Positions 53,798 through 64,000 of a stretch of DNA of 64,000 nucleotides are shown here, piece by piece. The stretch spans positions 12,922-76,921 of the forward strand of contig JAJDBH010000139.1 of NCBI GenBank assembly GCA_029261455.1. The letters are read 5' to 3'. The notes below the pieces were generated by a model. It was not told the DNA's origin, made no database searches, and was given only the letters and a program-made list of their open reading frames with translations. Each line of letters starts with the position of its first letter. Within the stretch, counting starts at the first letter, position 1. Made by a program: the position numbers and the translations under genes. This stretch comes from Nitrospinaceae bacterium. Lineage in GTDB: Bacteria; Nitrospinota; Nitrospinia; Nitrospinales; VA-1.

Positions 53798-56239
53798 CTA
53801 TTCCACGCTGACACCGCGCCGAGCGGCGGGGAAGGTCAGGGAGAACGTCGTTCCCTTGCCTTCTTGAGAGGAGACGTCAATCTTTCCGCCATGTTTCTCC
53901 ACCAGTTTATGGACGATGTTCAGTCCCAGCCCCGTTCCCTTACCTTGCTCCTTGGTGGTGAAAAATGGATCATAAATTTTCGACAAGTATTCTTTGGGAA
54001 TGCCCGGCCCTGTATCCTTTATTGTCGCAAAAACAACTCCATTTTGCCCTGCAGTTGATATTCTCAGTTCTCCTTTACCTTCCATCGCTTGTACTGCATT
54101 CGTCAGTAAATTAGTAAATATTTGTTGAATTTCTTCGGGCTTGGCTTTAATGGGAGGCAGCGCAGAAAAACTTTTATCTACTCTAATATCATTATTATAG
54201 GAAGTAAGAATTGCAATCTCGATGGCCGCATCGATACGTTCATTAAGGTCCACCTCTTTTTCTTCTACCAACCCGGCAGAGCGTGTGTAGCCCGACATAT
54301 TGAGAATGATCGACGCCATATGCTTGGAACGATCAAAAACTTTACTGGCATATTTATGAATTTTTTTCTGATCCTTTTCATCAAGAATAGCTTCCGTAAA
54401 ACCCATGATGGAGACCAGCGGATTGTTCAACTCATGGGCAATGCCCGCGGCAAGCGTACCCAGACCAGACAGCTTTTCCGCCATTGCCAGTTGATCATGC
54501 AACTCCACATCTTCCGTAACATCTCTTAAGAGCAGTCCAAGTCGTTCACCACTGCCATCATGAATAACAATATCAAAAATCTGGAAAGCGAAAACCTTTC
54601 CGTCCAGCTTGATAGTTTGTTTCATGCTTTGCAGGGAAGGAGATTCCTCCCGAGGAGCAAGAGGATCACGGGCGGTATAACATTGTATGCTTTGGCTCCC
54701 CAGACCATTGTTAGCAATGGGGACAACTTCACTATAATAATTGATGAGCGCTTCCTGCACATCCTTCCAGGCAGAGGAAGACTCCAGATCCTTTAAATGA
54801 TTCCCCAACAGTTGCTCGTCAGTTCGACCAGCGATATTTTCAAAGGCTTCATTCACGTATTCAATTTTCATCTTTGGGTCAAATATAGCCACTGCATCGG
54901 GCACACTTGTGAGAATACTGTCGGTGTATTCTTTGAGGTAACGGACTTCTTCAGTTTTTTCGCGCACCTTACTTTCCAACCCTGAAAAAGATTTTTGCAG
55001 TAAATCATTCATCTGATTCACTTCATTAGCAAGAGCCTCCAGTTCGTCTCCGGTTTTTATTTCCAAGGTTTCAACTTTTTCACCTTTACCAATGCGCTCC
55101 GCAGCTTTCTGTAGTCTTCTAATCGGCTGAACAATTTTCTTAGCCGCTAAAGAGCCCATGCCTCCGATCAGCAGAATGGACACCACCCCAGCCGTGGAGA
55201 TCCATAAAAAGAGTTTGTTCATGGGGGCGAATAATTCATCCGAAGCCTGCCAGGCAAACGTGTACCAATTCTTCCCTTCCGATTTCGTGATCAGTTCCCT
55301 AGTTTGCTGTAGAGGTGAAAATCCGATGATGGAAAGTTCTTCTCCTCCATGACCGTCTCCCATGGTTTTAACCCAATCTGGATTTTTCCCTGTAACACTC
55401 CTCACTAGAACGGGATCTTCCAACATAAATCCTGTTGGCAAAATCGGGCAATCAACCACCATGCCGCTCGAATCAATCATCATGACATGACCCGTTTCGC
55501 CAAAGGTGATTGGTTCGATGGAACCAGAAAAAAACTCCCTCGCATCAAACACATGATGCAAAACTCCTATCGTCCTCTCCTTTTCATCAAGAATCGGGAA
55601 GGCAAATGTCATCAAAAAAGATTCAGTTTTTTTATTAAAGGTGACCGGTCCTATATAAACAAACTCTTTTCCACCTGCAATGGTTTTTCCCCAATCAGGC
55701 TTTTCACTATGAAGCCATTCGGGGAAGTCGTTGATGCTTGCCCGGAGAACCCCGAAGGCATCGGTGACATACAATGCCTGCGTCGCAAGAACAGACAGTA
55801 TCTTTCTTTTCTGGAAACTTTGCAGTGCCCAACTGGCTTCTGACTCAAGAATGGGTTTGGTTGAGCCAGAAATTACTTCCTCAATCTGTATTTGCCGTGT
55901 TGCCGGGTTAAGGAGGGTCTGATTGAAATCTAAAATGCTTGATCGGATGGAAGGGTGAGCAGCATGGCGGATATTTCGTGATATCTCACCATCTATCAAT
56001 AAATCTACCTTGGTAGAAGTTTCATAAGCCAACGCCTTGAAGCTGGCTCCGATCACCCCCTGCAAGGATTTTGTCCCCTGCAAATAGGAAAGGATCATAG
56101 CCAGCATCAAGGGTAAGGCCCCAACCCCGAGCATAGTCCAGATTAATTTATTTTTTAATCCGGCACGTATGCCCTTCCGTATTTCAGTTACCCCGGAGCT
56201 TCTCGCTTGAGAAGAGGGATTGTCACGATGTGCATCCAT
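53798..56239 (-). CDS. Sensor histidine kinase (periplasmic Cache-like domain, HAMP, PAS, HisKA, HATPase)
   Basis: Two TM segments flank a periplasmic domain of about 300 aa. HAMP (IVQPIRRLQKAAERIGKGE), PAS, H-box AAGIAHELNNPL, DTGPGIP, GKGTGLGL. Confidence 0.85.
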   Translation of the reverse strand: MDAHRDNPSSQARSSGVTEIRKGIRAGLKNKLIWTMLGVGALPLMLAMILSYLQGTKSLQGVIGASFKALAYETSTKVDLLIDGEISRNIRHAAHPSIRSSILDFNQTLLNPATRQIQIEEVISGSTKPILESEASWALQSFQKRKILSVLATQALYVTDAFGVLRASINDFPEWLHSEKPDWGKTIAGGKEFVYIGPVTFNKKTESFLMTFAFPILDEKERTIGVLHHVFDAREFFSGSIEPITFGETGHVMMIDSSGMVVDCPILPTGFMLEDPVLVRSVTGKNPDWVKTMGDGHGGEELSIIGFSPLQQTRELITKSEGKNWYTFAWQASDELFAPMNKLFLWISTAGVVSILLIGGMGSLAAKKIVQPIRRLQKAAERIGKGEKVETLEIKTGDELEALANEVNQMNDLLQKSFSGLESKVREKTEEVRYLKEYTDSILTSVPDAVAIFDPKMKIEYVNEAFENIAGRTDEQLLGNHLKDLESSSAWKDVQEALINYYSEVVPIANNGLGSQSIQCYTARDPLAPREESPSLQSMKQTIKLDGKVFAFQIFDIVIHDGSGERLGLLLRDVTEDVELHDQLAMAEKLSGLGTLAAGIAHELNNPLVSIMGFTEAILDEKDQKKIHKYASKVFDRSKHMASIILNMSGYTRSAGLVEEKEVDLNERIDAAIEIAILTSYNNDIRVDKSFSALPPIKAKPEEIQQIFTNLLTNAVQAMEGKGELRISTAGQNGVVFATIKDTGPGIPKEYLSKIYDPFFTTKEQGKGTGLGLNIVHKLVEKHGGKIDVSSQEGKGTTFSLTFPAARRGVSVE

Positions 56240-56269
56240 ACATGGAACCTCTTATTATGGATACAGGGT

Positions 56270-56692
56270 TTAGACATAATCAAATTCTTGCGGAGATGCC
56301 AGCACCTCGGCAACTTTGGCCAACAATTTTTCTTTCTCAACAGGTTTGACCAGATAATCTTTCACACCTTTTTTCATCAAAGAAACTGCCAAGTCTGAGT
56401 CGGGATAACCCGTGACCACAATGATAGGAATAGAAGGTGCATTCTGTTTCAAGTAATCAATGGCCTCAATGCCATTGACCTTAGGCATTCTGATATCGCA
56501 AAGGATCAACCCAACTTGTAACAGGTTTGCACCTGACTTCATCATGTTAATACCTTCTTCTCCATCTGAAGCCTCGATCACATTGTATTTGCCCGACTCA
56601 AGGTGAAGCCTTAACACTTCTCTCACTTCTGCTTCATCATCGATGATAAGAATCTTTCCTTTGGTGCTGGAAGCATTTTCTATAAAGGACAT
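56270..56692 (-). CDS. Single-domain response regulator (CheY-like)
   Basis: KILIIDDE...LILCDIRMPKVNG...IIVVTGY...KDYLVKP. ATG at 56692 behind AGGAGG. Confidence 0.85.
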   Translation of the reverse strand: MSFIENASSTKGKILIIDDEAEVREVLRLHLESGKYNVIEASDGEEGINMMKSGANLLQVGLILCDIRMPKVNGIEAIDYLKQNAPSIPIIVVTGYPDSDLAVSLMKKGVKDYLVKPVEKEKLLAKVAEVLASPQEFDYV

Positions 56693-56932
56693 GGGGAACC
56701 TCCTGCTCAGGTTTGGGAACAAAGCTCACTGCCTGGGAAAAACTGCAATTTACTTTTTTCACAAAAAGTGAACTCAACCACTAACTTATAGGGAATATAA
56801 TTCCCGAAAAAGGATCCCGCCACAATTTACAAAATGAATTTTTTTTCATTAACAAGTTTCAGCCGCAGGACGCGACACAGGAAACAACCTCAACCTTATG
56901 TAATCCAAGGGGAAAATGATGCAAAAGCCTCA

Positions 56933-56973: not shown

Positions 56974-57975
56974 TTATTGGCCTTTGAAGGTAGAACGAAC
57001 GTAAGCGATGACATCGGCCAGACTTTGCTCAGGCAAAGTCATACCCCAGTCCGGCATATTGGAAGATTTGCCGACACTTTTACCGCCAAAATAAATCAGG
57101 TTATATAAATAATCCTCTGGGTAATCTGAAAGTGGCAGATCGGCATGAACTGCCGGTTTTGGGTCCAAACCTTTAGCACCCGGTCCATCACCCTTACCTT
57201 GAGGACCATGACACTGCACACAATATTCTTTATAAACTTTGGCGCCTCGTTTCGCGTCGGATTTTTTGAAAGCCGCAGAATTCCACGGTTCGTAGAATTT
57301 AAAATCCTTCACACCCAGGGTCATGACATAACCTATAACATGGCGTGCCTTGCGAGCGCTGATGTCTGCCAGATATTCACCACTATGCGGGGTGAAGTCC
57401 TGAGGGTTTTCTGCGAACCGGCTCCACCAATCCAGATTGTATCGGTTGCCTGCATTAAAGAGGTCAACACTGATCGGGCCGCCCATGTTTTTTCCTTCAT
57501 CATCCTTAATCTGGTGACAACCCATGCAGGAATATTCCTTAAAAATCCCTGCCCCCAAGCTGGCCTCCATTTCCGTAAAGGTGGACATGTCGACAAAGCT
57601 TTTCTTGATCCGAGGGTCACGGTAAGTCTTTTCCATATAATCAGCGATCGCTATGGCTTCTTCCTTCATCAATACCATATGCTTGCCGGAAAAAGTGGAT
57701 TTGTCCCAGCGATAACTGTTGGGGTAAAGATTGTCTTCCTGCCCCATCAGTCGGCGGATCAACCAGGGACGTTGGTACTTAACGCCACTCCACATCAAGT
57801 CTGGGGCTTTCAACCCAAACTTGGACGCAGGTTTACCTTCAAACCTGTGGCAGTTTTTGCACTGACTGTTAATTATTTTTTCGGCGAACCCATCATCACC
57901 GGCCCAAAGGGCGGAAGGCATTGATATCAATAAAAACAGCAACACTGCGAAACATACAACTGATAATCGCCTCAT
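56974..57975 (-). CDS. Trihaem c-type cytochrome
   Basis: Signal peptide. Three CXXCH sites: CKNCH, CMGCH, CVQCH. Confidence 0.8.
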   Translation of the reverse strand: MRRLSVVCFAVLLFLLISMPSALWAGDDGFAEKIINSQCKNCHRFEGKPASKFGLKAPDLMWSGVKYQRPWLIRRLMGQEDNLYPNSYRWDKSTFSGKHMVLMKEEAIAIADYMEKTYRDPRIKKSFVDMSTFTEMEASLGAGIFKEYSCMGCHQIKDDEGKNMGGPISVDLFNAGNRYNLDWWSRFAENPQDFTPHSGEYLADISARKARHVIGYVMTLGVKDFKFYEPWNSAAFKKSDAKRGAKVYKEYCVQCHGPQGKGDGPGAKGLDPKPAVHADLPLSDYPEDYLYNLIYFGGKSVGKSSNMPDWGMTLPEQSLADVIAYVRSTFKGQ

Positions 57976-58004
57976 AATAATTCTCCCGTCCCTGTTAATA
58001 AACT

Positions 58005-58490
58005 TCAGACTATCAAAAACTGCTTTATGAATAAAATCAACTGCCAGATTTCCTCAGGCTTCAAAGTGGATTTATGAGCTGGCATGGCAGTACCCCGCGA
58101 GCCGTTCTGAATGACCCAGAACAACTGACCGTCTGGCAAGTCGCTCATCACTTCAGCGCATGTAAAGTTTCTCGGAGGTGGGTCCAACCTTCTTGCCAGA
58201 CTGCCATTACCATTGCCCTTGGCTCCATGACAGAGCTTGCAAGCAGTTGGTTTAGCATCTTTATTAAAAAGCCGCTTGCCCTCGGCCAGGTTTTTTGGAG
58301 TCGGTGGCACTGGGTTCTTCTTTTTAAGGTACCGACCTGGAGCCTTTCGGGTTTTGCGGTTCTGCGGACAAATCCCAGAAACCAACAGCACCGATCCATC
58401 CCTACTTTGAACGCGTGGCAGAACATCTTCGGCAACCACCTCTTGCCCTGACAATAATAGCGTTAAGGACAGTGCCAAAACCCGGAGCAT
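58005..58490 (-). CDS. Monohaem class-I cytochrome c (type B, no His-rich insert)
   Basis: Start MLRVLALSLTLLLSG at 58490. CPQNR, CKLCH, PPRNFTC, DGQLFWVIQNGSRGTAMP. Confidence 0.75.
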   Translation of the reverse strand: MLRVLALSLTLLLSGQEVVAEDVLPRVQSRDGSVLLVSGICPQNRKTRKAPGRYLKKKNPVPPTPKNLAEGKRLFNKDAKPTACKLCHGAKGNGNGSLARRLDPPPRNFTCAEVMSDLPDGQLFWVIQNGSRGTAMPAHKSTLKPEEIWQLILFIKQFLIV

Positions 58491-58494
58491 CGTT

Positions 58495-59061
58495 TTATTT
58501 TCTTCGAGGTTGAGAGAACTGACGCAAATAATGAATAATCTGCCATATTTGCTTGTCATCAAGATCTTTAAATGCCGGCATACCCGTTCCCGGTGAACCA
58601 TTGCGGATGATCCAGAACAACTGACCATCGGAAACATGCCGCATCGTTGCCTTGCAATTGAAATTCCGTGGCGATGGATTCAGCCCCTGCGCCATGATAC
58701 CTAGTCCATTACCATTCACACCATGGCAAATTTTGCAGGCCACCGGCTGAGCATCCACCTGGAACAAAGATTCACCTGCATAAATAGTGTCCCGGCTGGA
58801 TTCCAACGGATTAGGCTGGTCACGGATTTCATCAGGAGCCTGATCTGTATACCGCTTCTGCGGACAAGTGCCCTCACCGGCAAACCCCTGCCCATGGTGC
58901 CCGCGATGGTGACGCAAATGATGCCGATGTCCATATCCCATAGGCGGCGGTCCCGCTAATACATCAGATATCATCCCAAATATAAATATTCCCAGGATCA
59001 CACCAACGATACCAGCCTTGCTGAACCCTCTCTTCATATTGAACACCTGTAGAAAATCCAT
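58495..59061 (-). CDS. Monohaem cytochrome c (type B) with His-rich insert
   Basis: GYGHRHHLRHHRGHHGQG, CPQKR, CKICH, PRNFNC, DGQLFWIIRNGSPGTGMP. Start is 59061 or 59037. Confidence 0.75.
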   Translation of the reverse strand: MDFLQVFNMKRGFSKAGIVGVILGIFIFGMISDVLAGPPPMGYGHRHHLRHHRGHHGQGFAGEGTCPQKRYTDQAPDEIRDQPNPLESSRDTIYAGESLFQVDAQPVACKICHGVNGNGLGIMAQGLNPSPRNFNCKATMRHVSDGQLFWIIRNGSPGTGMPAFKDLDDKQIWQIIHYLRQFSQPRRK

Positions 59062-59065
59062 TCGA

Positions 59066-59488
59066 TTAATTACTTAGAGAAAATGTGCGGATGAAATGAA
59101 TCACACTCCAACCCTCTTCTTCGTTGATAACCTTGCCTACCCGCACCGGCATTTCCGTTCCCGGACTACCATTCCTCAATACCCACATGAGTTCGCCATC
59201 AGTCCGGGTCTCCTGCCATTTTGGATCGGTAAAATCTCTCGGCGAATGACCGGGCCGTTGCACCCCTTTGCCATCAACATTGTGGCAGGTGACACACTGG
59301 CCTTTACCAAAATAAATCAGTTGCCCGGAATCTATTCTCTCTGGAGTTGGCGAGTAGGGGTTATCCATATCCTGAAGTTCGTCTAAAAGTTCAGGAGGAA
59401 CCCTCGGCGCATAGTTATCTAGATGAAACGCTTCGGCCAAACCTGCAAGCAAGAGAGCCGCTATTAGAGTTAAATGGATCGTTCGCAT
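59066..59488 (-). CDS. Monohaem cytochrome c (type A)
   Basis: Signal peptide. PRVPPE, CVTCH, PRDFTD, DGELMWVLRNGSPGTEMP. Confidence 0.75.
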   Translation of the reverse strand: MRTIHLTLIAALLLAGLAEAFHLDNYAPRVPPELLDELQDMDNPYSPTPERIDSGQLIYFGKGQCVTCHNVDGKGVQRPGHSPRDFTDPKWQETRTDGELMWVLRNGSPGTEMPVRVGKVINEEEGWSVIHFIRTFSLSN

Positions 59489-59554: not shown

Positions 59555-60208
59555 TCAATTACTGAGCTGGCGAATAAAATGAATCAATTGCCATATCTGC
59601 CTGTCAGTAAGGCTTTCGAAGGGAGGCATACCTGTACCGGGAGAACCATTTTTTATGATCCAAAACAATTGCCCGTCAGGAATTTTTTCCATCGTTTCTA
59701 CGCAAGTGAAGTTTCTTGGAGGCGGGGTCATGTCTCCACTCATCATGCCCAAACCATCGCCTGAGCCGTGACACATTGTGCAACTGGGTTGCGCATCCAA
59801 CTGAAAGAGCAGGCGCCCTTTTTCAATATTATCAGAGGAGTTTTCCAAGGGGTTGGTCGCATTATATAAAGATTCAGGAGCTTTGGCAGTAGCTCTGGGT
59901 TGCGGACATTGAGACTCGCCATCTAATCCGGGGCCACTGCCCCCATGGTGCATCATCCCATGTCTCGAACCTCTATGATGTCCTTTTCCACCACGCTCGC
60001 AACCCATATGCTGTTCTCCCTGCTTGCAGCCACCACGACGAGCAAGAATAATCGTCTCTTTATTTTCAAAATTGAGGAACCCTTTATCATCATTTGGAGA
60101 TGGGGAAACCCCTGCATAGACAGGGCCATTCAAAAGCAGAAATATCCCAAGAACAACAAAAAGCAATCTCGAAATTGTATTGAGTTTGTTTAACAATAAG
60201 TTCTTCAT
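59555..60208 (-). CDS. Monohaem cytochrome c (type B) with Cys/His/Met-rich insert
   Basis: GGCKQGEQHMGCERGGKGHHRGSRHGMMHHGG, CPQPR, CTMCH, PPRNFTC, DGQLFWIIKNGSPGTGMP. Confidence 0.75.
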   Translation of the reverse strand: MKNLLLNKLNTISRLLFVVLGIFLLLNGPVYAGVSPSPNDDKGFLNFENKETIILARRGGCKQGEQHMGCERGGKGHHRGSRHGMMHHGGSGPGLDGESQCPQPRATAKAPESLYNATNPLENSSDNIEKGRLLFQLDAQPSCTMCHGSGDGLGMMSGDMTPPPRNFTCVETMEKIPDGQLFWIIKNGSPGTGMPPFESLTDRQIWQLIHFIRQLSN

Positions 60209-60299: not shown

Positions 60300-60743
60300 T
60301 CACTTTCCAAATGAGCGGACATACAAAATCAAATGCCAGGCCTCTTCTTCAGTCACCACCGAAGGTACAAACTTAGCCATGGCAGTTCCTTCACTGCCAT
60401 TTTTCAAAATCCATAGCAGTTCCCCATCTTTCCGTGTGGTTTGCCAGACTTTATCAGTAAAGTTTCGCGGGAGCTTTCCTACCAGTCCGGGGATATCACT
60501 AAACCCTCTGCCATCTATTCCGTGGCAGGTCACACAAAATGCCTTGCCGGTAAAAAGGGCTTTGCCCTTTTCAATATTCTCTTTGGTAGAAGGAAAAGGA
60601 TTGACCCATGATCGCGCTTCTTCAATCTGGTCAGGAGGAACCCTGGGGTTCAGAATTTCTGAATCAGTTGCTGCGCTCGCCACAGGTAATAAGCAGAGGA
60701 GCAAGCCACAAAAGAGTCCTGTTCTCATCTTGTTCTCAAACAT
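60300..60743 (-). CDS. Monohaem cytochrome c (type A)
   Basis: Signal peptide. PRVPPD, CVTCH, PRNFTD, DGELLWILKNGSEGTAM. Confidence 0.75.
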   Translation of the reverse strand: MFENKMRTGLFCGLLLCLLPVASAATDSEILNPRVPPDQIEEARSWVNPFPSTKENIEKGKALFTGKAFCVTCHGIDGRGFSDIPGLVGKLPRNFTDKVWQTTRKDGELLWILKNGSEGTAMAKFVPSVVTEEEAWHLILYVRSFGK

Positions 60744-60823: not shown

Positions 60824-61345
60824 TTATTTGGTTCGAAAAACATGACCCACAGAGGTAGGTACTGTCACCGTTCCATCTGGAACAACCTGATCTTTACCCC
60901 AGAGGTGAAAAATAACACCATCTGTTTTGCCTGCGGCTTCCGCAAGGGCTTTCACTTCTTTGGGATCTTCAATATCAAGAATGACTACTCGCCCCGTATC
61001 AATCTCAACCTGATGATCATGGAATGCCCGGTTCCACTGGATAAGCGGCACATTCTTTCTAGCAAGGTCCTTTGCTATAAAATATTCCACGGCTACAAGT
61101 TTGGCATCGGGAGCAGTCGTTTCAAATAATAGGCATTGAAGAATCTCACCGCCTTGGATTCCCTTACAAAAATGATGATAAGGTCCACCGACCGTGCCAT
61201 TCGCCATCATGTGTGGTGCTTGAACATGAATGGTGTATCCATCTGCTGGCCCATTACCGCCACTAATGGCCGGGGTTGCCAGAAAACCTAAACCCACCAG
61301 GCTCAGGACACTTATCATTAAAATAGTTCTAATTGTTTTTTTCAT
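60824..61345 (-). CDS. Secreted DUF1264/OBAP-like protein
   Basis: Signal peptide. PYHHFCKG...LQCLLFETTAPDAKLVAVEYFI...WNRAFHDHQVEIDTG matches my recollection of the DUF1264 core (HHYC...QC..yd...ArLiGvEY...WHsH.yEv.sG). Not verified. Confidence 0.55.
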   Translation of the reverse strand: MKKTIRTILMISVLSLVGLGFLATPAISGGNGPADGYTIHVQAPHMMANGTVGGPYHHFCKGIQGGEILQCLLFETTAPDAKLVAVEYFIAKDLARKNVPLIQWNRAFHDHQVEIDTGRVVILDIEDPKEVKALAEAAGKTDGVIFHLWGKDQVVPDGTVTVPTSVGHVFRTK

Positions 61346-61476
61346 TGCTACCTCCTAATAGGTAATGAAAAGGATTAAAAATTTACACTTCATTTATGAA
61401 TCAATAATACTCGTGCAAAAAGTGTTAGCACACTTCTATTTAAACAACCTGAGACAAACTAGCCTATTGCTAAACC

Positions 61477-62043
61477 TCAAGATTGGTTGTTTTTTTCCCA
61501 ACGTTCCAGAGATACCAACCCGAATATCCCCGCAACCCACAAACCTGCTATGAATAACCAGGGAGAGAGTCCGGTGAGATCTACAAAAGTCACTTTTCCA
61601 AAGTTCCCTACACTCAAAATATGAGACTTTATCCATGGGTAAACTTCAGCAAATAAACCGGCACCCACAATCATTCCAAACACTCCTGCTATAGCGTGCC
61701 GGGAGCCTTCACCCATGGCGGCAACTGCGGTCCCTGGGCAATACCCCAATACCGCCATCCCTGCTCCAAAAATGAGTCCACCCAAGGCGTTCCCCAAGAG
61801 TGCCGTGGTCTTTACATGCAAAGCGATGTCAAAACCTAAAGCCCGCATGCCATATATACCCACGCTACCCACCATCACTGCCGTCAACATGATCTTAAGC
61901 ACAGTAAAGTCTTTCAACATGAATTGCCCCACAATCACGTTGTACCGGGTCACACCACCTTTTTGCAGTAAGAAACCAAATAAAAATCCTATAATTCCCC
62001 CCATCAAAATGGTGGCTGGGTTTGCAAAAAAATGTTCAAACAT
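61477..62043 (-). CDS. YeeE/YedE-family membrane protein, second half (DUF6691-like)
   Basis: Start MFEHFF at 62043 gives an ATGTTTGA overlap with the upstream stop. Polytopic. GYCPGTAVAA motif. Confidence 0.75.
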   Translation of the reverse strand: MFEHFFANPATILMGGIIGFLFGFLLQKGGVTRYNVIVGQFMLKDFTVLKIMLTAVMVGSVGIYGMRALGFDIALHVKTTALLGNALGGLIFGAGMAVLGYCPGTAVAAMGEGSRHAIAGVFGMIVGAGLFAEVYPWIKSHILSVGNFGKVTFVDLTGLSPWLFIAGLWVAGIFGLVSLERWEKNNQS

Positions 62044-62659
62044 TATTTTTCCCTCCCTTGCCATACAACAACCAGGCCGTAACAATTCCAGCGGCAAACA
62101 GGCAAAGAAAAAATATCCAGGAAGATACCGCCAATTGAAGGCTACCGGAAATTCCATGCCCGGAAGTGCAACCACCTGCCAAACGCGCCCCGAACATCAC
62201 AATAATCCCTGCCAAAAAAGCTCCTGCAAAACGAACGCCCTTTGAAGGACCAAACCGTACTTTCCAGATATCGGGAACGGTTTCACTTAAGCGGGTCGAT
62301 GATAACCATGATGCACAAAACGCTCCCAGAACCAACATTACCACTAATGCAAACTGCCATTCAAATACAGGGTAGGGTCCTTCCAAAGTTCCAAGGTATT
62401 TTACAAAATAGGCATTTGATCTAATATGGTCCTCAGACACCAATCCTTCAACCATTCCCGCAGTTCGAACAAAGGTTGTGGAGACTCCCAAGGCCTTATT
62501 CATCAAAGCAAAAGTAACCCATGAGAGTAAACCAATTCCGGTTCCTACTGCATAGGGTGACCACCGAGCTTTTTGAAATATTGAGAGCATTTTCTCTTCC
62601 ATTGCCTTTGTTTTTTTCAGCAACCGGTTAATGAGGTAGAAATTCTGGGGTTTGGGCAT
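62036..62659 (-). CDS. YeeE/YedE-family putative sulfur-compound transporter, first half
   Basis: Polytopic. LAGGCTSGHGISG is the family signature. Start uncertain (62659, 62602 or 62590). Confidence 0.75.
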   Translation of the reverse strand: MPKPQNFYLINRLLKKTKAMEEKMLSIFQKARWSPYAVGTGIGLLSWVTFALMNKALGVSTTFVRTAGMVEGLVSEDHIRSNAYFVKYLGTLEGPYPVFEWQFALVVMLVLGAFCASWLSSTRLSETVPDIWKVRFGPSKGVRFAGAFLAGIIVMFGARLAGGCTSGHGISGSLQLAVSSWIFFLCLFAAGIVTAWLLYGKGGKNNV

Positions 62660-62828
62660 CCAGTTTTCTTCTCATCTCAGCGGATAAACTTTTGATCTTA
62701 CTCTGGCCCGGATTCAGCCCCATATCCTGATCTTTAATCTTTTTCCAGTATCGACGACTCAGCTCCTGACTGGAAAGTATTTTTTTCAATTTTCTCTTAG
62801 CATTGTAGATGCGCACTTCATAAAACAT
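62628..62828 (-). CDS. Small basic protein (66 aa), unknown function
   Basis: ATG at 62828 sits 4 nt after GGAGGTGG. MFYEVRIYNAKRKLKKILSSQELSRRYWKKIKD... has no TM segment and no Cys. Confidence 0.4.
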   Translation of the reverse strand: MFYEVRIYNAKRKLKKILSSQELSRRYWKKIKDQDMGLNPGQSKIKSLSAEMRRKLDAQTPEFLPH

Positions 62829-62851: not shown

Positions 62852-63289
62852 TCAAAAGGCAAACTGGTTTCCCTTTTCTTTTTCACTGAGCTTTCTCAAA
62901 ATCTTCACAATCAATTCAAACTCCAACGATTTATTTAAAACAAAGTCTGCACCTGCCATTTTCAGTTGAGCTTCAATATCTTCATAAGGTTGTTCCGCCA
63001 AAATAATCAGAATGGGTTTGTTTTTAGAGAATTCAAAATCCCTCATTACATTCATTGCCGTTCCATCGGCAAGATACAGATCTAACACCAAGACATTGGG
63101 CTGAAAACGGTGAACAGAAAGAGCGATCTCTTTCAGACTGGTCCATGTCGCGACCACGTCCACTTCGGGAATGCCTTGAACCAGACCATACAAACGGCCC
63201 AACACACCTTTAGAGTCTTCAACTGACAGCAAAACTTTCACCAGACTTGTCTCCTCAATCTCTTTCATTAAGGTAAGTATGGGTGACAA
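62852..63289 (-). CDS. Stand-alone receiver (REC)-like protein, slightly atypical
   Basis: VLVLDLYLADG is the putative phospho-Asp. Acidic pair is ED. Ala replaces the usual Thr/Ser (IILAEQ). Conserved Lys in FVLNKS. Start is 63289 (TTG) or 63268 (ATG). Confidence 0.6.
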   Translation of the reverse strand: MSPILTLMKEIEETSLVKVLLSVEDSKGVLGRLYGLVQGIPEVDVVATWTSLKEIALSVHRFQPNVLVLDLYLADGTAMNVMRDFEFSKNKPILIILAEQPYEDIEAQLKMAGADFVLNKSLEFELIVKILRKLSEKEKGNQFAF

Positions 63290-63394
63290 ACTAAAAATTT
63301 AATATCGTTTGGCTTGGGGTTTTAAGGGTCATAAAACAAGGGTTTGGCTTGTCGTAGATCTACGACAAGAGGGGGAAAGAACGGCGCGGGGAAT

Positions 63395-64000
63395 CTACTC
63401 TACAAGCTTGTTTTTAAGCGCATAATGGATGAGCTCGGCGTTGGACTTGAGGGCCATTTTTTCCAGTATGCGCGACCGGTGGGTGCTCACTGTAGTAACA
63501 CCTACAGAAAGCTCCTCGGCAATATCTTTCAGCGATCTACCCGAAGCAATCGAGCAAAAAACCTGAAACTCTCTGGGAGAAAGAGTCTCATGTGGAGACT
63601 TTTCAGAATCTCTGCCCAACTCGTCGACCAGCCTTTCGGCCATTTCCGGACTGATGAATTTCCCACCACTGGCAACTTTGCGGATCGCCTGCACAAGTTG
63701 GTCGGGGGCACCGGCTTTGGTCAAATAGGCGGAGGCACCGGCTTTGAGGAATCGCATGCCATACATATCCTCCGAATGGATGCTTAATATGATGACCGGG
63801 AGCTTTGGATACAGGCTTTTCAATTGCGGGAGTACTTCCCAACCGCTTTTTACTGGCATTTCAATATCCATAACCACAACATCTGGCATTTGGATTTTGA
63901 CTTTTTTTAACACCTCCGCACCATTTTCGGCTTCATCGATGACAGAAAGATCAGGCGTCTTCGACAATATCTGCTTGATGCCTTGCCGCACAACAGCATG
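63395..64000 (-). CDS. NarL/LuxR-family response regulator (5' end beyond the right edge)
   Basis: The frame is open to the window end (..HAVVRQGIKQIL). DVVVMDIEMP. C-terminal LuxR HTH (LSPREFQVFCSIASGRSLKDIAEELSVGVTTVSTHRSRI). Confidence 0.85.
   Translation of the reverse strand, partial: HAVVRQGIKQILSKTPDLSVIDEAENGAEVLKKVKIQMPDVVVMDIEMPVKSGWEVLPQLKSLYPKLPVIILSIHSEDMYGMRFLKAGASAYLTKAGAPDQLVQAIRKVASGGKFISPEMAERLVDELGRDSEKSPHETLSPREFQVFCSIASGRSLKDIAEELSVGVTTVSTHRSRILEKMALKSNAELIHYALKNKLVE

Follow-up and report, generated by a model that had tools for sequence, protein, structure and literature searches.

Much of the nitrate in the ocean is made by Nitrospinaceae, which live along the margins of oxygen-minimum and sulfidic zones; the locus described here has a split sulfur-compound channel encoded beside a row of cytochrome genes in such a nitrite oxidiser. 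The locus lies in a 64,000-nt stretch of DNA (G000:C139:12922-76921, the window in what follows) from a genome of 3.5 Mb that is 84.5% complete and whose nearest public genomes carry the titles of Nitrospinaceae or Nitrospina metagenome-assembled genomes (MAGs). Its minus strand encodes, in order, a LuxR-type regulator, a receiver-only protein, a 66-aa basic protein, two half-size YeeE/YedE membrane proteins (yeeE_A and yeeE_B), a secreted DUF1264 protein, six cytochromes, a CheY-like regulator and an 813-aa sensor kinase (Table 1). A sequence-only reading of this DNA had suggested that the gene combination couples the transport of a sulfur species to periplasmic redox chemistry. On balance we hold it probable that the split YeeE channel is the membrane link of a cytochrome-c-linked periplasmic arm for the oxidation or detoxification of reactive sulfur (sulfide, polysulfide, thiosulfate, sulfite). 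More interesting than the split transporter is the finding that DUF1264 and cytochrome c accompany sulfur enzymes in nitrite oxidisers of two phyla.

In Nitrospirales, Ca. Nitrospira neomarina among them, DUF1264 has homologues with 54-75% identity, and a homologue of the monohaem cytochrome cytA1 directly follows DUF1264 in most loci examined. Five Nitrospirales loci have, in this order, a sigma-54 activator, where present a YgaP-type membrane segment, a persulfide dioxygenase (PDO)-rhodanese fusion, a rhodanese, DUF1264 and a cytochrome c, and in several of these five a SorA-like (sulfite dehydrogenase) gene with its own cytochrome, or a CoA-disulfide-reductase (CoADR)-rhodanese, comes next. 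PDO-rhodanese genes lie at most three genes from DUF1264-cytochrome c in loci L132, L133, L135, L136, L143 (here after the cytochrome), L137, L138 and L139; CoADR-rhodanese genes stand near it in L026, L132 and L136, and SorA-like genes in L132, L133 and L136. L137, L138 and L139 belong to other Nitrospinota families, and in them DUF1264-cytA is contiguous with PDO-rhodanese, a dihaem peroxidase and B-type and trihaem cytochromes. In Nitrospirales and in other Nitrospinota, then, DUF1264-cytochrome c adjoins PDO-rhodanese, CoADR-rhodanese, YgaP-type segments and SorA, and this lends independent comparative support to the general notion that a sulfur species is linked to redox chemistry in the periplasm. 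Stand-alone YgaP-like transmembrane proteins (PF11127) were also seen 5' of the YeeE pair (L022:9047-9370, genome G024), 5' of PDO-rhodanese (L136:4492-4704) and 5' of DUF1264 (L143:5627-5845), and in other loci the YgaP-like segment is fused to rhodanese; the protein would seem to be a second membrane protein belonging to this gene neighbourhood. Two of the sulfur genes are irregular: the PDO-rhodanese at G029:C38:23585-25000 (minus strand) has one in-frame TGA, and the CoADR-rhodanese beside DUF1264 in G023 (L026:8338-9654) matches in two pieces with the middle missing. These may be pseudogenes, cases of recoding or assembly errors.

The assignment of the secreted protein to DUF1264 was borne out by profile search (PF06884, 50.0 bits against a cut-off of 25). 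Secretion, which had also been predicted, agrees with a Sec-type signal peptide ending ...TPAIS/GG, and the His and Cys residues that had been called conserved proved to be so: H40, H45, H57, H58, C60, C71, H109, D110, H111, E114 and D142 are invariant in an alignment of 49 sequences, as are Q70, W149 and D157. The invariant columns number 31 and include 7 His, 2 Cys, 3 Asp and 1 Glu. The AlphaFold2 model had a mean predicted local distance difference test (pLDDT) value of 81.7. A phmmer search against the PDB found no solved relative of DUF1264, and the best Foldseek match had an E of 0.2, with template-modelling scores below 0.25. The family has at least 2,268 homologues, plant oil-body proteins included, and we know of no biochemical function for any DUF1264/OBAP member. 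A preprint lists the family among novel folds and predicts for it a buried binuclear metal site that would suit a small substrate (bioRxiv 10.64898/2026.10.18.759936), and no literature link to sulfur was found among papers naming DUF1264. The plant oil-body-associated proteins (OBAP) belong to the same family and share the conserved His/Asp-rich core, but the present protein is bacterial and secreted and always comes with a monohaem cytochrome c. SorAB (sulfite:cytochrome c oxidoreductase) and flavocytochrome c sulfide dehydrogenase are periplasmic enzymes that take electrons from a sulfur compound and reduce with them a dedicated monohaem cytochrome c, the product of an adjacent gene; they provide a working analogy for DUF1264-cytA1, although DUF1264 is unrelated to them in sequence or fold and has no molybdopterin or flavin domain.

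The open reading frames (ORFs) of the two membrane proteins and of DUF1264 were found as the sequence-only reading had described them (62036..62659, 61477..62043, which starts at an internal ATG of the 61477..62175 frame, and 60824..61345, all on the minus strand), except for the start of yeeE_A. A start at 62659 would make the gene run into the preceding small ORF, and the relatives all fit an ATG at 62601 or 62589 (184-188 aa); from the alignments, one of these two is most likely the true start. Membership of the YeeE/YedE family was clear, with PF04143 (Sulf_transp) scores of 71.3 bits for A and 67.0 bits for B against a cut-off of 27, and the two proteins are the only PF04143 matches of the genome. 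A Pfam check had been proposed with three models, of which PF04143 and PF06884 passed but DUF6691, the PmpB-type model, did not: unlike PmpB, yeeE_B reached only 24.8 bits, under the cut-off of 27. The hallmark motifs GGCTSGHG and GYCPGT are present and conserved: of 84 related pairs, 79 have GYCPGT and at least 59 have GGCTSGH[GA]. The TGA stop of yeeE_A overlaps the ATG of yeeE_B by 8 nt (ATGTTTGA, 62036-62043, in the context ...AATAATGTTTGA...); exactly this overlap recurs in 30/84 related pairs, and an overlap of 1-29 nt in 55/84. Translational coupling is a fair description of yeeE_A and yeeE_B but not of DUF1264, before which there is a spacer of 130 nt.

In the YeeE profile the upstream gene covers positions 161-309, which belong to the C-terminal half of the single-chain protein, and the downstream gene positions 8-154, which belong to the N-terminal half, so that the gene order is permuted with respect to fused YeeE. 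This A-then-B order was found in all 80 of 80 loci from reference genomes. Cys91 and Cys293 are indispensable in the TsuA of Spirochaeta thermophila; in our alignments Cys145 of A (within GGCTSGHG) corresponds to Cys293 of TsuA (PDB 6LEO) and Cys102 of B (within GYCPGT) to Cys91, and both pore cysteines are conserved over the 84 pairs. The position of TsuA Cys22 is occupied by Thr in YeeE_B (LQKGGVTRY vs LQRGRICFN). The B subunit aligns with TsuA residues 4-189, central helix included, and hydropathy indicated about four hydrophobic segments in A and about five in B. The subunits have 184-188 aa (A) and 188 aa (B), and the subfamily medians are 184 and 190 aa. With 6181 homologues of yeeE_B at E ≤ 1e-10, the subfamily is a large one.

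A two-subunit channel, as the sequence-only reading had proposed, is likely, but as an idea it is not new, since PmpAB (PMC11582611) and YedE1E2 (PMC10812762) have already been published. PmpA represents the C-half and PmpB the N-half of YeeE, each with one cysteine (TsuA C293 and C91); a heterodimer was proposed, and PmpB-type halves likewise lack the first conserved cysteine (PMC11582611, Li et al. 2024). YedE1E2 of Cupriavidus imports zero-valent sulfur, both of its cysteines are essential, it has no TusA partner and its neighbours are ArsR and PDO; export was not supported (PMC10812762, Xun laboratory). Like the pair studied here, PmpA/PmpB (Serratia sp. ATCC 39006) and YedE1/YedE2 (Cupriavidus pinatubonensis JMP134, Sinorhizobium meliloti) are encoded by adjacent half-size genes with the C-half-like gene first, have one conserved cysteine per half and lack an adjacent TusA/YeeD, and their ArsR, PDO and rhodanese neighbours recur beside relatives of the present pair in other phyla. 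They differ in subunit length (about 130-140 aa vs about 185-190 aa here), in the fifth segment of the B subunit, which corresponds to the TsuA central helix and is missing in the published PmpAB (4+5 vs 4+4 helices), and in local neighbours, which are ArsR/PDO there and c-type cytochromes and DUF1264 here. The lack of a TusA/YeeD gene next door had been noted correctly, there being no PF01206 match in the window, but it is no anomaly: it is usual for this type of transporter, since YedE1E2 was tested as a TusA-independent importer. Judged by these comparisons, the pair is a widespread long form of the known PmpAB/YedE1E2 kind, a variant in which the split itself is ordinary.

The likeness to other YeeE-family systems is more distant. 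The thiosulfate importer TsuA/YeeE of E. coli and Spirochaeta thermophila (PDB 6LEO and 8J4C), whose partner is TsuB/YeeD, shares the Pfam family and the pore cysteines C91 and C293, and yeeE_A and yeeE_B jointly span nearly the whole nine-helix TsuA chain; it is a single chain, whereas here there are two genes in permuted order, with Thr in place of C22 and without an adjacent TusA-like YeeD. SoxT1A and SoxT1B of Hyphomicrobium denitrificans, importers for sHdr oxidation and signalling, resemble the present case in that the gene of a YeeE-family protein stands together with genes for sulfur oxidation and its product connects sulfur chemistry in the periplasm with enzymes or regulators in the cytoplasm. 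The SoxT proteins are single-chain, have three cysteines and are encoded in sox/shdr clusters, in contrast to our locus, which has no sox or shdr cluster in a genome in which no SoxB was found. The BigR-Blh (Xylella/Agrobacterium) and CstR-CstAB (Staphylococcus aureus) systems, operons for the detoxification of sulfide and persulfide, bring together PDO-rhodanese fusions, CoA-persulfide-type reductases and YeeE-type membrane proteins, an enzyme set that also accompanies DUF1264-cytochrome c in Nitrospirales and other Nitrospinota. These systems use ArsR/CsoR-type persulfide sensors and often SQR; here, unlike there, regulation is two-component or sigma-54, no SQR was found, and a secreted DUF1264 protein and c-type cytochromes are added.

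The distribution of the pair and of DUF1264 was surveyed in 41 Nitrospinota genomes. The pair was found in 12 of them, all of which also carry DUF1264. Within the genus of the window's genome the locus is syntenic, and the neighbourhood, for which the sequence-only reading asked for conservation in at least some relative, is kept as small66-A-B-DUF1264-cytochromes in 8 genomes. Four distinct Nitrospinota arrangements keep the pair beside homologues of the same cytochromes. The order is DUF1264-cytA1-A-B-cytB1-cyt3h in L048, YgaP_TM-A-B-cyt3h in L022 (G024) and A-B-cyt3h in L046 (Nitrospinaceae MAG PW1), and A-B is followed by a cytB1 homologue in L045, L047 and L025; in L024 (G032) the YeeE pair, cytB1, a peroxidase and PDO-rhodanese lie within 7 kb, with the pair 4 kb from PDO-rhodanese. 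The recurrent partners of the pair are thus the cytochromes rather than DUF1264 specifically. As cytochromes (CXXCH proteins) beside the pair are essentially absent outside Nitrospinota, this link is specific to the lineage. As a separate observation, A, B and cytB1 form a recurring three-gene unit in other Nitrospinota (L045, L047, L025, L048). In the genus cytB1 was seen only in pair-bearing genomes (the window's own, G005 and G015), and four pair-bearing genomes do without it.

Outside Nitrospinota 69 loci were inspected, and their most frequent neighbours were ArsR-type helix-turn-helix proteins (13) and rhodaneses (7 upstream, 6 downstream), followed by metallo-beta-lactamases (6 + 3) and pyridine-nucleotide-disulfide oxidoreductases (6). 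Together these leading families make up the genes of persulfide/sulfide stress operons. TusA was missing from the 25 Pfam families met most often right next to the pair at these 69 loci. In a tree of 82 concatenated A+B pairs, 13 of the 14 Nitrospinota pairs formed one clade (Shimodaira-Hasegawa-like approximate likelihood ratio test, 96) nested in Phycisphaerae (Planctomycetota); the pairs of another Nitrospinota family fell inside the clade of the genus and the G024 pair stood separately. The tree suggests that the pair was acquired from planctomycetes and later transferred within Nitrospinota. An uncultured proteobacterium (L036:6466-12206) has a related pair directly 5' of NAD-dependent formate-dehydrogenase-like genes (Complex1_51K and molybdopterin subunits), an arrangement that recalls the YedE/FdhT-formate dehydrogenase link known for selenium supply.

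Known sulfur enzymes that could work with the pair were found elsewhere in the genome. They comprise PDO-rhodanese on contig C233, CoADR-rhodanese on C39, SorAB (SorA and its cytochrome on C111) and a sulfite-reductase-TusA fusion on C226. There are five Oxidored_molyb matches in the genome, of which one, on a contig other than that of the window, is SorA-like with a cytochrome partner. PDO-rhodanese and CoADR-rhodanese have no signal peptide, SorA has a twin-arginine (Tat) signal, and DUF1264 and the cytochromes are periplasmic. PF01206 matches lie on other contigs, and the sole strong TusA domain is the one fused to the sulfite-reductase-like ORF: C226:8143-9948 (minus strand) encodes an assimilatory sulfite/nitrite-reductase-like protein of at least 601 aa, which runs off the contig end, with a C-terminal TusA domain (PF01206, 73 bits) that retains the conserved cysteine in GVKCPFNY. 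This fusion could be a cytoplasmic acceptor for sulfur from a YeeE-type channel. The PDO-rhodanese belongs to a cluster on the plus strand (C233:1890-7401) of a receiver, a DsrE-like protein, a Tll0287-like haem protein, a PDO with two rhodanese domains (473 aa), a Cu/Zn-SOD-like protein and a dihaem cytochrome c peroxidase; the Tll0287-peroxidase-PDO set was also observed 2-4 kb downstream of the YeeE pair in G032 (L024). SoxB gave no match, an absence that the incompleteness of the genome leaves unproven, and among 13 Pyr_redox_2 matches none of the six of SQR size inspected by eye looked SQR-like. Only SorAB has been reported for the class Nitrospinia (PMC10839748), Nitrospira marina was reported to lack SQR (PMC8115632), and in the literature that could be searched no paper links Nitrospina with YeeE, the one that names both mentioning each a single time.

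According to the explanation that we favour, yeeE_A (the C-half) and yeeE_B (the N-half with the central helix) would form a heterodimeric channel of the PmpAB/YedE1E2 type, in which the two subunits rebuild the nine-helix TsuA fold and contribute one pore cysteine each, Cys145 of A and Cys102 of B. The channel would pass sulfane-sulfur or thiosulfate species from the periplasm to the cytoplasm without a dedicated TusA partner; import is favoured because TsuA, SoxT and YedE1E2, that is every characterised member of the family, import. The core of the locus in the genus would be the secreted DUF1264 protein, presumably a metalloprotein, and the c-type cytochromes, with two-component regulators flanking them and the pair as an optional addition at the head. 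We read the locus as the periplasmic arm of a reactive-sulfur network because the same core is interleaved with PDO-rhodanese, CoADR-rhodanese, YgaP-type segments and SorA in other nitrite oxidisers, and the YeeE pair would connect the periplasmic and the cytoplasmic sulfur chemistry. The family membership, the conserved cysteines, the gene arrangements and the neighbour statistics given above are observations; the heterodimer, its substrate and direction of transport, a catalytic role of DUF1264 and a functional coupling between the pair and DUF1264 are what we infer from them.

Several observations weigh against this explanation, and some of them favour a different one, namely that the pair is a stand-alone, laterally mobile cassette for the uptake of thiosulfate or sulfane sulfur, serving assimilation or protection from persulfide stress, which was inserted by chance and has no mechanistic tie to DUF1264 or the cytochromes. 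This is the main rival explanation, though we think it doubtful. The rest of the locus is syntenic, but the pair is polymorphic: the corresponding position has no pair in G014, a single-contig assembly, and in G009, where the 66-aa gene is directly followed by DUF1264, and G006, of the same genus, also lacks the pair. DUF1264 and the cytochromes therefore work without the pair in G014 and G009, and the pair could not be upheld as an integral, conserved part of a DUF1264-cytochrome operon; it behaves as an optional cassette of the genus, inserted upstream of DUF1264. Because about 110 nt of the spacer proximal to DUF1264 align between pair-bearing genomes and the pair-lacking G014, DUF1264 has a conserved 5' region of its own, which leaves its co-transcription with the pair putative. 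Two Nitrospinota pairs (G023, OFTM6) stand alone, those in other phyla mostly stand alone or have unrelated neighbours with no CXXCH proteins nearby, and the nesting of other-family Nitrospinota pairs in the genus clade points to transfer. The pair and PDO-rhodanese do not co-occur in the genus except in the window's genome, and on this count a dependence of the pair on PDO-rhodanese was ruled out. The TusA domain of the sulfite-reductase-like protein could accept the imported sulfur, and YedE1E2 alone raises cellular persulfide and lowers oxidative stress (PMC10812762). A chance insertion accounts poorly, however, for the homologous cytochromes that stand beside the pair in four Nitrospinota arrangements, inside the cluster in L048, for the scarcity of Nitrospinota pairs without such neighbours (2 of about 16), and for cytB1, which in the genus was seen only in pair-bearing genomes. 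Also unfavourable to a sulfur arm are the DUF1264 loci L134 (Geobacteraceae), L142, L027 and L028, which have no sulfur genes, and the content of the clusters themselves: cytochrome c peroxidase is encoded in the cytochrome clusters too, and the Cu/Zn-SOD-like gene in the PDO-rhodanese cluster of the genome, so that an oxidative-stress role is equally compatible.

The pair might also work in the opposite direction and export cytoplasmic sulfite or thiosulfate, made by PDO-rhodanese or coming from another source, for oxidation by SorAB and/or DUF1264 with transfer of the electrons to the cytochromes. The lack of signal peptides on PDO-rhodanese and CoADR-rhodanese, set beside the periplasmic SorA, DUF1264 and cytochromes, would suit such a route, and in related clusters no TauE-type exporter was seen, its place being taken by a YgaP-type segment or the YeeE pair. 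We nevertheless consider export distinctly unlikely, given the importers TsuA, SoxT and YedE1E2, the failure of the YedE1E2 experiments to support export (PMC10812762) and the seven pair-bearing genomes of the genus that have no PDO-rhodanese. It is highly improbable that the substrate is not sulfur at all, the pair moving selenium (like YedE/FdhT), another chalcogen or a metal, and the His/Met-rich cytochromes and DUF1264 handling a metal such as copper or peroxide stress. The selenium or tellurium option of the sequence-only reading gained no backing. The weak NCBIfam similarity to the YedE/FdhT selenium proteins amounts to 31-34 bits against cut-offs of 200-350; the related pair 5' of NAD-formate-dehydrogenase-like genes, the binuclear metal site predicted for DUF1264 (bioRxiv 10.64898/2026.10.18.759936) and the cupredoxin-like, cytochrome c peroxidase and SOD genes of related clusters agree with a non-sulfur role, but the neighbour statistics of the subfamily favour rhodanese, PDO and ArsR, and sulfur enzymes neighbour DUF1264 in at least eight loci.

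Nitrite oxidation in Black Sea incubations was slower, or below detection, at depths with sulfide (PMC13768755), and surveys of Nitrospinota and marine Nitrospira mention SorAB only and note the absence of SQR (PMC10839748, PMC8115632). The pattern described here links a YeeE-type channel, a secreted DUF1264 protein, c-type cytochromes and genes for PDO, rhodanese and SorA in two phyla of nitrite oxidisers. It suggests a wider, regulated reactive-sulfur system in these organisms and an undescribed route of sulfur handling, and it gives DUF1264 its first concrete, testable biochemical context. A bolder version, which we put forward tentatively and regard as rather unlikely, is that DUF1264 and its monohaem cytochrome c are a new periplasmic sulfur-compound:cytochrome c oxidoreductase, with a novel fold and a binuclear metal centre, that stands in for SQR or flavocytochrome c in Nitrospinaceae and marine Nitrospira. 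Its substrate for oxidation would be sulfide or thiosulfate, and the YeeE pair (or, in other lineages, the YgaP-type segment) would carry the sulfane-sulfur product to the cytoplasmic PDO-rhodanese. If this is true, a cytochrome-linked mechanism would let the main nitrite oxidisers of the ocean withstand sulfide at oxic-sulfidic interfaces, or even profit from it.

Table 1. Features of the locus, with positions in the window and the basis of each assignment
Feature	Position	Strand	Basis
yeeE_A, half-size YeeE/YedE, PmpA/YedE1-like	62036..62602	-	Pfam PF04143, homologue N-termini, hydropathy
yeeE_B, half-size YeeE/YedE, PmpB/YedE2-like	61477..62043	-	Pfam PF04143, TsuA alignment
ATGTTTGA stop/start overlap of yeeE_A and yeeE_B	62036..62043	-	sequence read
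Spacer between yeeE_B and DUF1264	61346..61476	-	alignment of pair-bearing and pair-lacking relatives
Secreted DUF1264 protein, 173 aa	60824..61345	-	Pfam PF06884, 49-sequence alignment, AlphaFold2 model
cytA1, monohaem cytochrome c, cytochrome-579-like	60300..60743	-	Pfam and NCBIfam
cytB1, membrane-anchored monohaem cytochrome c with Cys/His/Met-rich (Gly/His/Met-rich) linker	59555..60208	-	Pfam, relatives' loci
cytA2, cytB2, cytB3 and trihaem cyt3h	56974..59488	-	Pfam and NCBIfam
66-aa basic protein directly 5' of the pair	62628..62828	-	synteny; no Pfam family
Receiver-only protein	62852-63289	-	ORF list and Pfam
LuxR-type response regulator	from 63395, past the window end (region 62852..64000)	-	ORF list and Pfam
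CheY-like regulator and 813-aa sensor kinase, closing the locus downstream	53798..56722	-	position kept across the genus

The cytochrome array 3' of DUF1264 consists by Pfam of five monohaem and one trihaem c-type cytochromes, and in a profile search the first domain of cyt3h resembled SoxX with a score below the cut-off. Scans of 56-64 kb for promoters and terminators gave nothing above shuffled sequence and no operon boundaries were obtained; a check of window composition did not mark the pair as foreign by its GC content. The 66-aa protein was considered as a cryptic TusA, and this was rejected as it matches no Pfam family; in the genus it is kept directly 5' of the pair and, in genomes without the pair, directly 5' of DUF1264. 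The 17-nt sequence TTTGTCTCAGGTTGTTT (61442-61458, minus strand), which lies 5' of DUF1264, is conserved between pair-bearing genomes and G014 and may be a candidate operator or promoter element of the DUF1264-cytochrome genes. As a regulon motif it was discarded, since it does not recur before other sulfur genes and is unique in the genome when up to 2 mismatches are allowed, as far as informative places go. Beyond the window, the LuxR-type response regulator is followed by a 437-aa histidine kinase.

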